Shown: positions 17,901 through 20,900 of the stretch, one piece after another
Position numbering within the stretch: the stretch's first letter is position 1
Layout of the letters: each line of letters starts with the position of its first letter
Assembly: GCA_965113315.1 (NCBI GenBank)
Contig: OZ220363.1
Source: Podarcis vaucheri
Taxonomy: Eukaryota
Reading direction: 5' to 3' (one strand)
DNA length: 64,000 nucleotides
Position numbers and translations under genes: made by a program
Notes under the pieces: model-generated
What the model saw: the letters and a program-made list of their open reading frames with translations, nothing else
The model's database searches: none
Told to the model about the DNA's origin: nothing

Positions 17901-20900
17901 CATACAGGACAGCTGCATATTCTGCATTGCAGGGGGGTGGACTAGATGATTTGCAGGGTCCCTTCCAACTCTCCACTTCTATGATAATTTTTTTTTGAAA
18001 AGACATTCTACTGAAAAGTATTCTACTGACAGAAAGAGAACAAGTTTTACTCGTTTGGCAGGGGAATCAAATAACATTAGTTACCCTTACCATATTTATG
18101 AAGTAGGTTGGGCATTACTGAATTCTTTTCATAACTAAATTAGCCTTTTTAAAGGTGTGTTTCATAATTTTGAAGGGGGGGGAGGAGAGAGAGGGAAAAT
18201 TTGCCTGGTCCTGACCTAGAGACTCACCCTTTAAGTCAATTGGCTAGTTCAGAGAATGCATTCTCTCATTGACACAGATTGTAGAGAGCAGGAGCCCTCC
18301 TTCTGCCATTCACAAAGGAGACTAACATTCCAGTGGGTCCTATATGCATGTACAATCCAATGCTTACAGGCAACAATAATTTGTTTACGTCATGTGTGCA
18401 TACGTTTCATTGAAATATTATGCCTTGCAAAAGTAACTGTGGCAAGGGAAGTGGGGCAAATGCAACAGGCAGACGTGGGAGAAAGGCATTCTCTCACTTC
18501 CAACAAATGTAGAAAGTAGTGCCTGAGCCAGTCTTTCTTCACTTGCTGTGAAGCAGAACTACAGGCGCTCTTTCTTTGGCAGATAACGGAAGGGGAGGAA
18601 TGGCAAGAGAAGGGGCTGCTGGTGCACTAAAACAACAGCTACTAATTAAGATAGAAGCTCAGGTTTGATATTCTGCCAAACCATGGTTTAAGCTTCCAAA
18701 TGTACAGACAACAAAGTATGATTTAGAGTTTCTCATTTGCTTTATTTTCCACCCACTCATCACCAGCTTCACAAGTCGGTAAATTCACTCCGGTCTCCAT
18801 AGTGCAGCAGCCTCTTGAGACAAAAGCATAATTGCAGCTATTGTTCTTATAAAATCAGATATCACATCAAGCCGGTTAGCACAAACTATGGTTTGCAAAC
18901 CTATGTCAAGTCATGTTTTCAAATTCTAGTTTGGTGGCTGTTCACAAACCATAGTCAATTCAGACATCATGCCTAATGTAATTAAGCATTAAGGATCATG
19001 AACTGAGACAAAGAGAAAGCACAAATCATTTCAATTTGAGAGATCTTTATACTTTAGAAATATAAATATTTTTTGTTATTTAAAAAGTGTGTATTTTTAG
19101 GAACACAAAATAATATGAAAAACTCAAATGTGAAAAACCACACACAAACATTATACGTTCTTACCATCTACACTGGCATCATCCACCAAAATTATTTCCT
19201 TCAGTAATATTGCAGGGGAAGTATACATCACACTGTGAACTGTTCTTAAAAGAGTAGACCATGCTTCATTGTGGAAAACAATGATAACACTTGTGGTAGG
19301 TAGTGGAGGACAGCGTTTAAACTTTTGCTCGATACATCTAGATGACAAAAACAGTTTTAAGAACGAAAAATGGATTATAAGTCTGATACTTTGATGTGGC
19401 ACAGATAAAGCTTGGCAAGTATGGTGGAACTTCTTTCTCCCACCAATACTAATATAAAAAAGCCATGCACAAGATCTGTGCGGAGCAATTGTTTCCAGAA
19501 TATCCTAACAAAGCGTAACATAAAAAAATTCCTTCCAGTAGCACCTTAAAGACCAACTAAGTTAGTTCTTGGTATGAGCTTTCGTGTGCATGCACACTTC
19601 AGATCTTCAGGTATCTGAAGAAGTGTGCATGCACACGAAAGCTCATACCAAGAACTAACTTAGTTGGTCTTTAAGGTGCTACTGGAAGGAATTTTTTTAT
19701 TTTGACTATGGCAGACCAACACGGCTACCTATCTGTAAAGCGTAACATGTTTTTGTAATACATCACAAGGGGCATGTGGCAATTTAGAACAATTGCCACC
19801 ATAAAATGTCCAGGATTTACAATTTATCAAGGATTAGACACTTGTGATGAAAGAAAAGGGCATCCTTTCATCAATACATCTTAAAACAGGGGTGGGGAAC
19901 CTTCAGACCCTATCTAGGCTCGCTATACCTGCCCATTTGGCCAAACAGGCCATTCTGGCTAAGCCACACCCATCTGCCAATCACCTCACAACATATATCA
20001 CATCTGTTGTGGGAAGGCAAAAAGGCAGCTGGGCTAGGACAAAGCGGGCTTCCGAAGTGACAATGATCAGATGACTGGCAGCACTTCAGCAACTTGTAGC
20101 AAATAGCCTTGTGCAGTATTTTGAAGTTGCCACAATCAACTGATTGTCTGGGCTTCAAAACACAGTGCCATTTTAACGGTACTTGCAAAGAGCCCTGTGC
20201 TGTGCTTTGAAATCCTGACAAACCGTTGGCTATCGAGATATCAAAGTGCCATGTCATCTGAAATCGCTGTGATGACAGGTTGGGGGCGGGTCCCTGACCT
20301 CATCAAATTTGCACAGAGTAAGCATCTGGTCCACTGGTGAGTTTTAATTTCCAACCCCTTTCGTAAAGGATATGTGTGAAAGGGCACCAAGCCCAAACAA
20401 ATTTACATCACCATCTATTGAATTTCTTAGATGCATTATTTGCTTCCGTCAGAGATAATTAGAAGATTACTGTACTCATACTTACACAGCTTCATACATG
20501 CAGATGCAAAATTAAGTAGCTAGAAATTATGCTAATGATAGTGGCGACAAAGCACATATCAATGCAGAACATGGGGAATCAAAACCCCTTTTCAATATTT
20601 TGCATATGTAATTAAAGACCAGAAATCCAAATATACTTCAACATACTCAGGAGGTCGTGTGTCTGGTCCAAGATCCCGGTGTAAAGAAATCCTGTCGCTT
20701 GCAAAAGCGTTGAAACAATGTTTTTCATCTCCGCGTTCTTTTTCCTCCTTCTCAGCTGGACTTAAATTGACCGTTTTGAATGGTTTACCAGAAGCCCCTG
20801 GAGCATGAGAGTCCTGAGGGGGTCGATCCAGGTGAGGTGTCAGCTCTGCTGCTGTATAGGAGCCAGGTAAACAGCGCTTCTGTCCTGCCTTTTGAGTTTG

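Follow-up and report, generated by a model that had tools for sequence, protein, structure and literature searches.

A minimal hammerhead motif antisense to a GALNT3-like gene of Podarcis vaucheri lies in a fold-back insert of a Penelope-like retroelement with high copy number and is probably inactive at that locus

In a 64,000-nucleotide stretch of Podarcis vaucheri DNA (the window), we analyzed a hammerhead motif at positions 19610-19649 (+ strand). We conclude, with a probability of roughly 0.88, that it is the hammerhead carried by a 215-bp fold-back insert of a Penelope-like retroelement (PLE) with high copy number, lying antisense to GALNT3 and likely inactive there. Junctions of the same family favor twin copying of uncut leader RNA.

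The letters and coordinates given for the motif in a preliminary description proved right as written. On the + strand, it consists of the 5′ strand of helix I (19610-19614), a CUGAAGA core box (19615-19621), an extra A (19622), helix II (19623-19636), a GAAA box (19637-19640), a helix III of the form A-GC-U (19640-19643), C17 (19644), after which the cut is predicted, and the 3′ strand of helix I (19645-19649). CUGANGA, GAAA, and a UH cleavage triplet follow one another in type I order, and the 15.2/16.2 positions form the palindrome AGCU. A single unpaired base, A19622, lies between positions 9 and 10.1 and is followed by the pair G10.1-C11.1 (G19623-C19636). When the 40-mer was folded in isolation, pairing probabilities were 0.86-1.00 in helix I and 0.98-1.00 in helix II. 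Helix II is a perfect 14-nt palindrome, which forms 5 bp and a 4-nt loop. The lowest-energy dimer (predicted, -37 kcal/mol) pairs two helix II palindromes rather than helix III, and such pairing of two copies may be an alternative to the helix III dimer.

A genome-wide count, proposed earlier as a check on the motif, was obtained for its 30-nt core: the 1.61-Gb genome contains 9,489 exact matches (4,757 + 4,732), as against 0 for the reversed control, and therefore the motif is not a product of chance. A loose hammerhead pattern matched 5 times in the 64-kb window, with 1.44 matches expected, and a generic minimal-hammerhead descriptor matched 24,643 times in the genome versus 1,053 for its control; among the first 100 matches listed for this descriptor, 68 belonged to the window family and 32 to a second family. 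Rfam covariance models gave no hammerhead match at E ≤ 10 in the 5,001 bases and the 63 bases scanned. The lack of such a match had been put forward as a refutation, but this is not valid, as Rfam gives no hammerhead even though the family link is certain. Among exact-core copies passing the helix filter in 1.6 Mb, helix I had 4 bp in 23 of 26, 3 bp in two, and 5 bp in one. Thus, the letters described for helix I (GGTAT/ATACC) stand, but helix I of the family is 4 bp long, and the fifth pair, G19610-C19649, is peculiar to the junction of the window copy. Copies of the window family are nearly invariant in their helices; the second family provides one comparison, in which the architecture is kept and helix II is wholly different.

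Similar features characterize the minimal hammerheads of metazoan PLEs described by Cervera and De la Pena (2014; PMC4209133), which in the available text have CUGANGA and GAAA, an unpaired base before helix II, G10.1-C11.1, palindromic 15.2/16.2 positions, a 4-bp helix I, and thousands of mostly single copies, and which that paper reports for Neptune and Poseidon elements as well as for reptiles. The extra A19622, which had been thought to put activity in doubt, is a published hallmark of these hammerheads and no defect (PMC4209133). The window family differs from those described by its perfect 14-nt palindromic helix II and its near-identical copies, and it is not named in the available text of that paper.

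We then examined the element to which the motif belongs. In longer copies, the sequence upstream of the motif contains a stop codon and an ORF. Just upstream of the hammerhead motif, the longest of 10 chosen long-frame loci has a 676-aa frame with matches to RVT_1 (E 4e-12) and GIY-YIG (E 3e-5), that is, a single ORF with RT plus GIY-YIG at its C-terminal end, as is characteristic of EN+ PLEs. We numbered the family from an initiator-like A (+1) that follows a TATA box (-30) at a distance of 30 nt. On this scale, the hammerhead occupies +4 to +41 with its core from +8, the predicted 3′ cleavage product begins at +38, the first ATG lies at +101, and the 3′ limit of inserted copies is close to +96 or +133. 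One copy, L251, has its first base precisely at +1 and extends into the ORF; in this copy, a leader copy (+2..+96; L251:2119-2213) is joined directly after a truncated ORF. Another, L258, is a partial tandem comprising the 3′ end of one copy, a pLTR with the hammerhead, and then a 921-aa open frame, the first ATG after the ribozyme being at +101. The hammerhead is thereby placed within the pLTR of a PLE, as in other minimal hammerheads, and the family displays the traits of EN+ PLEs: a partial-tandem pLTR, an inverted 5′-truncated copy, a one-sided tail, and a target duplication. A TATA box and initiator in the pLTR and an ORF start inside the pLTR/tail are likewise found in EN+ PLEs (available text of PMC8557442 and PMC3846280). 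Between RT and EN, the ORFs have a CX4CxxC linker, which fits the Neptune pattern CX2-5CxxC and is common to Nematis; in PMC8557442, as far as its available text goes, linkers of this type are assigned to Neptune and Nematis. The linker suggests a Neptune-type clade assignment, with the motif also found in Nematis. By its letters and setting, we regard the motif as a genuine Penelope-type minimal hammerhead, sited in the pLTR/5′ leader of an element that encodes RT and GIY-YIG. This bears out the earlier description of it as a Penelope-type minimal type I hammerhead with a palindromic helix III, and identifies the parent element.

The second hammerhead family (L080, L081, and L086-L088) has a different helix II, an ACGU helix III, a 2-bp helix I, and an ATG inside the core; in L088, its hammerhead adjoins a GIY-YIG-like frame. 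A large set of 915-aa open frames, some of which occur in ~2.96-kb tandems, probably belongs to this family.

The fold-back insertion in the window is flanked by a 12-bp direct repeat, with identical copies at 19510-19521 (left) and 19737-19748 (right). It begins with an inverted tail-less arm (19520-19600, - strand), which corresponds to family +13 to +93 (100% identical) and continues to about +6 after a 3-nt slip. A head-to-head junction follows (19601-19610), which can be mapped in two ways, as family -2..+2 minus one base or as a short copy of the core in reverse, and which supplies the copy-specific G19610. The main arm (19611-19738, + strand) spans family +4 to +131 of the pLTR/leader, is 99% identical to the long copy L067, and has its last 2 nt in common with the target duplication. 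Only this arm carries the PLE 'tail' (19704-19738, + strand; as the tail is outlined in the available text of PMC8557442, PMC3846280, and PMC11167929), which contains the first ATG of the element (19708-19710, family +101). Positions 19517-19600 and 19620-19703 form an inverted repeat of 84 nt with 99% complementarity, the motif lying in its right arm, and each strand of the insert folds as a whole into a single long hairpin, at -157 and -161 kcal/mol. The two arms are nested, and the copy is without the promoter part. Head-to-head arms, an inverted 5′-truncated copy, a 30-40 nt one-sided tail, and a target duplication are likewise described for EN+ PLE insertions, relative to which the window copy is the shortest form, with the leader only and no ORF body (available text of PMC8557442 and PMC3846280).

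The insertion site is empty in three of four other DNA runs, in each of which a single contig spans it (X5, X4, and X9). X5 bears the species label of the best-matching run, and X4 and X9 come from two other species; the fourth run, X3, has no contig across the site. The empty-site contigs cover 19000-19511 and resume at 19741/19742 with 3-4 letters between, joining across the target duplication. Since the empty site was spanned in three of four runs, the insertion is recent and probably unfixed. At 19511-19741, the contigs of all three runs are one letter longer than expected from precise loss of 227 bp, which comprise the insert plus a single copy of the duplication.

The insertion resides in an intron (19338-20646, - strand; 1,309 nt, GT..AG boundaries) of a GALNT3-like gene, between the first coding exon (coding part 20647-21164, - strand; GT..AG boundaries) and the coding exon downstream of the insert (19165-19337, - strand; 173 nt). 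The distance from the insert end to the 3′ splice site is 184 nt. The best PDB match of exon 19165-19337 is 6s22 (E 1e-32; next best, 4e-19), and the match of this smaller exon to that 631-aa GalNAc-transferase structure greatly exceeds its matches to T1, T2, T4, T7, T10, or T12. We take 6s22 to be GalNAc-T3 and the host intron to be 'intron 2' in human GALNT3 numbering. Upstream of the first coding exon, the segment 24500-25500 is CpG-rich (GC 0.58-0.64) and is likely the promoter and non-coding first exon of the gene. Exon-like frames at 33197-38211 (- strand) resemble TTC21B, which we assume to be the usual neighbor of GALNT3. Elsewhere in the window are ORF fragments of what are presumably an L2/CR1-like (57417-58001, - strand) and an RTE/BovB-like (60189-61124, + strand) non-LTR retrotransposon. 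At a separate locus, a 477-aa frame (L063:4568-6001, - strand) resembles an LTR-retrotransposon integrase with a chromodomain.

The placement in GALNT3 intron 2 given by the preliminary description therefore holds for the intron of the GALNT3-like gene, but the motif itself is antisense to that gene. Because GALNT3 is on the minus strand, its pre-mRNA is without an intact hammerhead: it carries the inverted arm, in which helix II, GAAA, and the UC site are kept, the 5′ strand of helix I is absent, and the core is disrupted. In a plus-strand transcript, synthesis of the upstream arm precedes that of the motif. The pairing probability was 0.00 for helix I and for helix II in four plus-strand segments containing part or all of the upstream arm, and helix I reached 0.05 in a segment without it (19603-19750). 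In plus-strand read-through, the long hairpin would form first. An active ribozyme that cuts GALNT3 pre-mRNA or antisense RNA and thereby affects the gene would be in keeping with the intact core residues and with the correct folding of the isolated 40-mer with its 5-bp helix I. It is nevertheless very improbable, given the strand of the motif, the loss of helix I from the sense-strand arm, the predicted collapse of the helices in longer transcripts, the missing promoter part, the lack of a tandem partner, the empty site in the other runs, and the failure of monomers of such motifs to cleave in the available text of PMC4209133. The catalytic RNA once proposed for this locus is thus not borne out: the motif is antisense to GALNT3, enclosed in a ~84-bp hairpin, and part of a recent, probably unfixed insertion. 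These predictions suggest that the window copy is likely an ordinary insertion stub, inactive as a ribozyme. The hairpin also scored with Rfam miRNA models (E down to 9e-11). All 13 of these matches were below gathering scores and reflect the base-pairing of a perfect inverted repeat, and the arms are transposon sequence, so that a microRNA precursor or chance hairpin is less probable still.

In transcripts of the parent element, cleavage by the hammerhead would be no more than weak and would depend on a dimer or an assisting protein. According to the text available for PMC4209133, monomers of minimal hammerheads do not cut and dimers cut weakly; dimer cleavage is attributed to Lunse et al. 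in the review PMC6765202, of which part is available. The hammerhead of PAc (Poseidon of Anolis carolinensis) is inactive without protein, as stated in the accessible part of PMC11167929.

To characterize how the family inserts, we compiled a junction sample of 160 adjacent 10-kb tiles (C1, 4.0-5.6 Mb), a dense stretch of one contig chosen without regard to 5′ ends. BLAST returned 97 pieces, of which 84 arms span the region after the cut site; the 13 not covering it were dropped. The 5′ ends of the 84 arms fell before -40 (24), at -40..-1 (5), at 0..+5 (20), at +6..+35 (26), at +36..+39 (2), and at +40..+68 (7). Within -40..+68, 19 of 60 ends were at +1..+5 (p 1e-11 versus uniform), and the cut site (+37/+38) accounted for two of 35 (p 0.31). 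Copies starting at the cleavage site are accordingly unsupported. The 3′ ends formed clusters around +96 and +133 and a lesser one around +79. Of the 84 arms, 82 have a start other than the cut site, and in 75 the start lies upstream of that site, so that most templates had escaped cleavage.

These ends bear on whether the family could be a non-autonomous retrozyme or SINE-like family, multiplying as short (circular) RNA produced by hammerhead cleavage. Most copies are short, and retrozymes derive from pLTRs (bioRxiv 10.64898/2026.07.22.740005, available text), where pLTR-derived short hammerhead units, sometimes tandem, resemble those seen here in L071, which has five head-to-tail hammerheads with a unit of 101-104 nt. 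However, identity between the short copies and the pLTR of the autonomous element is 97-100%, their 5′ ends grade continuously into the ORF, no pile of ends marks the cleavage site, and the L071 array starts near +1 rather than at the cut site. In contrast to non-LTR retrozymes, the window copy is a single head-to-head fold-back insert with a target duplication, and head-to-tail tandem units were not found in it. We therefore consider a retrozyme origin improbable. The L071 array (L071:941-1404; G000:C1 ~5,631,940-5,632,400, - strand), whose unit extends from about +1 to a T-tract, could allow a dimer fold.

The sample contained 23 head-to-head pairs, with the tail on one arm in 18, on both arms in one, and on neither in four. 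A target duplication of 11-16 nt was present in 13 pairs and a shorter one in five, and none was found in five. In 15 of the 18 one-tailed pairs (14 of 17 if a duplicated locus is counted once), the arms were not nested: the tail-less arm extended beyond the other on the 5′ side, and the tailed arm did so on the 3′ side. Two fold-back inserts that share a flank lie 11 kb apart (G000:C1 5,161,524 and 5,172,545) and likely reflect one local duplication.

The inverted arms of the same element might instead result from self-priming (fold-back) of one template, as interpreted for rotifer Penelope elements in the available text of PMC3846280. In line with this, helix II is palindromic, many junctions lie in or near it, and the arms are nested in the window pair and in three of the 18 pairs. 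Fold-back, however, makes one arm a part-copy of the other. In 15 of 18 pairs, no arm was contained in its partner, an arrangement that is hard to obtain from one folded-back template and would be expected from separate priming on two nicked strands. We therefore dropped fold-back of one cDNA as an account of the family; the arm geometry argues against the self-priming reading of PMC3846280, at least as the available text presents it, and we judge that reading unlikely. The nested arms of the window copy do not themselves discriminate between twin copying and self-priming.

Twin copying would proceed as follows. The protein of the element would nick both target strands about 12 bp apart, and reverse transcription would be primed at two internal start sites, at ~+96 and ~+133, on a leader RNA that begins at +1 and is uncut by its ribozyme. 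The two short cDNAs would then be joined head-to-head, yielding inverted arms, a one-sided tail, and a target duplication. That leader-only stubs record PLE insertion in this way, with both nicked strands priming separately (+96 and +133) on uncut RNA from the TATA/initiator site, is a proposition to which we give even odds.

A transcription start at +1 is suggested by motifs and DNA junctions. The letters at +1 are also compatible with a 3′ splice acceptor, and stalling of RT might produce a pile of 5′ ends there; the Drosophila virilis hammerhead adjoins an intron end (PMC4209133, available text). No RNA data set was listed as containing the window locus. RNA reads of a related species fell on both strands of the family pLTR, with 77-88% running on into unlike sequence. 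One pile of read starts lay 12 nt upstream of +1 (13 molecules, X24); these reads showed no such pile at +1 and no pile of starts or ends at the cut site, in fragmented libraries that cannot show cleavage.

In vitro, PAc cuts and extends both strands, two internal RT starts define its tail, and uncut RNA is its main template, according to the accessible part of PMC11167929. The window family resembles PAc in its two internal RT start sites (inferred here), its uncut template, and the lack of RNA-seq ends at the cut site. It differs from PAc, as there described, in an ORF start placed ~60 nt beyond the ribozyme and not within it, and in a protein with the CX4CxxC linker of Neptune/Nematis; the second hammerhead family of this genome looks like the PAc type. 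Our literature search, made with subscription papers and repeat databases outside its scope, found no report, by title or abstract, of twin priming in a PLE insertion, and no lizard PLE hammerhead with a transcription start.

The locus itself is of little weight: thousands of other copies exist, and this one is antisense and hidden in a fold. As a probably unfixed ~84-bp hairpin in GALNT3 pre-mRNA, 184 nt before the acceptor, it could at most attract RNA editing or touch splicing. The junctions of the family form a large, young, natural data set on PLE priming and on hammerhead cutting before insertion. If twin copying holds true, the published view that inverted pLTRs arise by self-priming would be overturned by the non-nested arms (15 of 18), which would also show that the hammerhead is bypassed in vivo during transposition.
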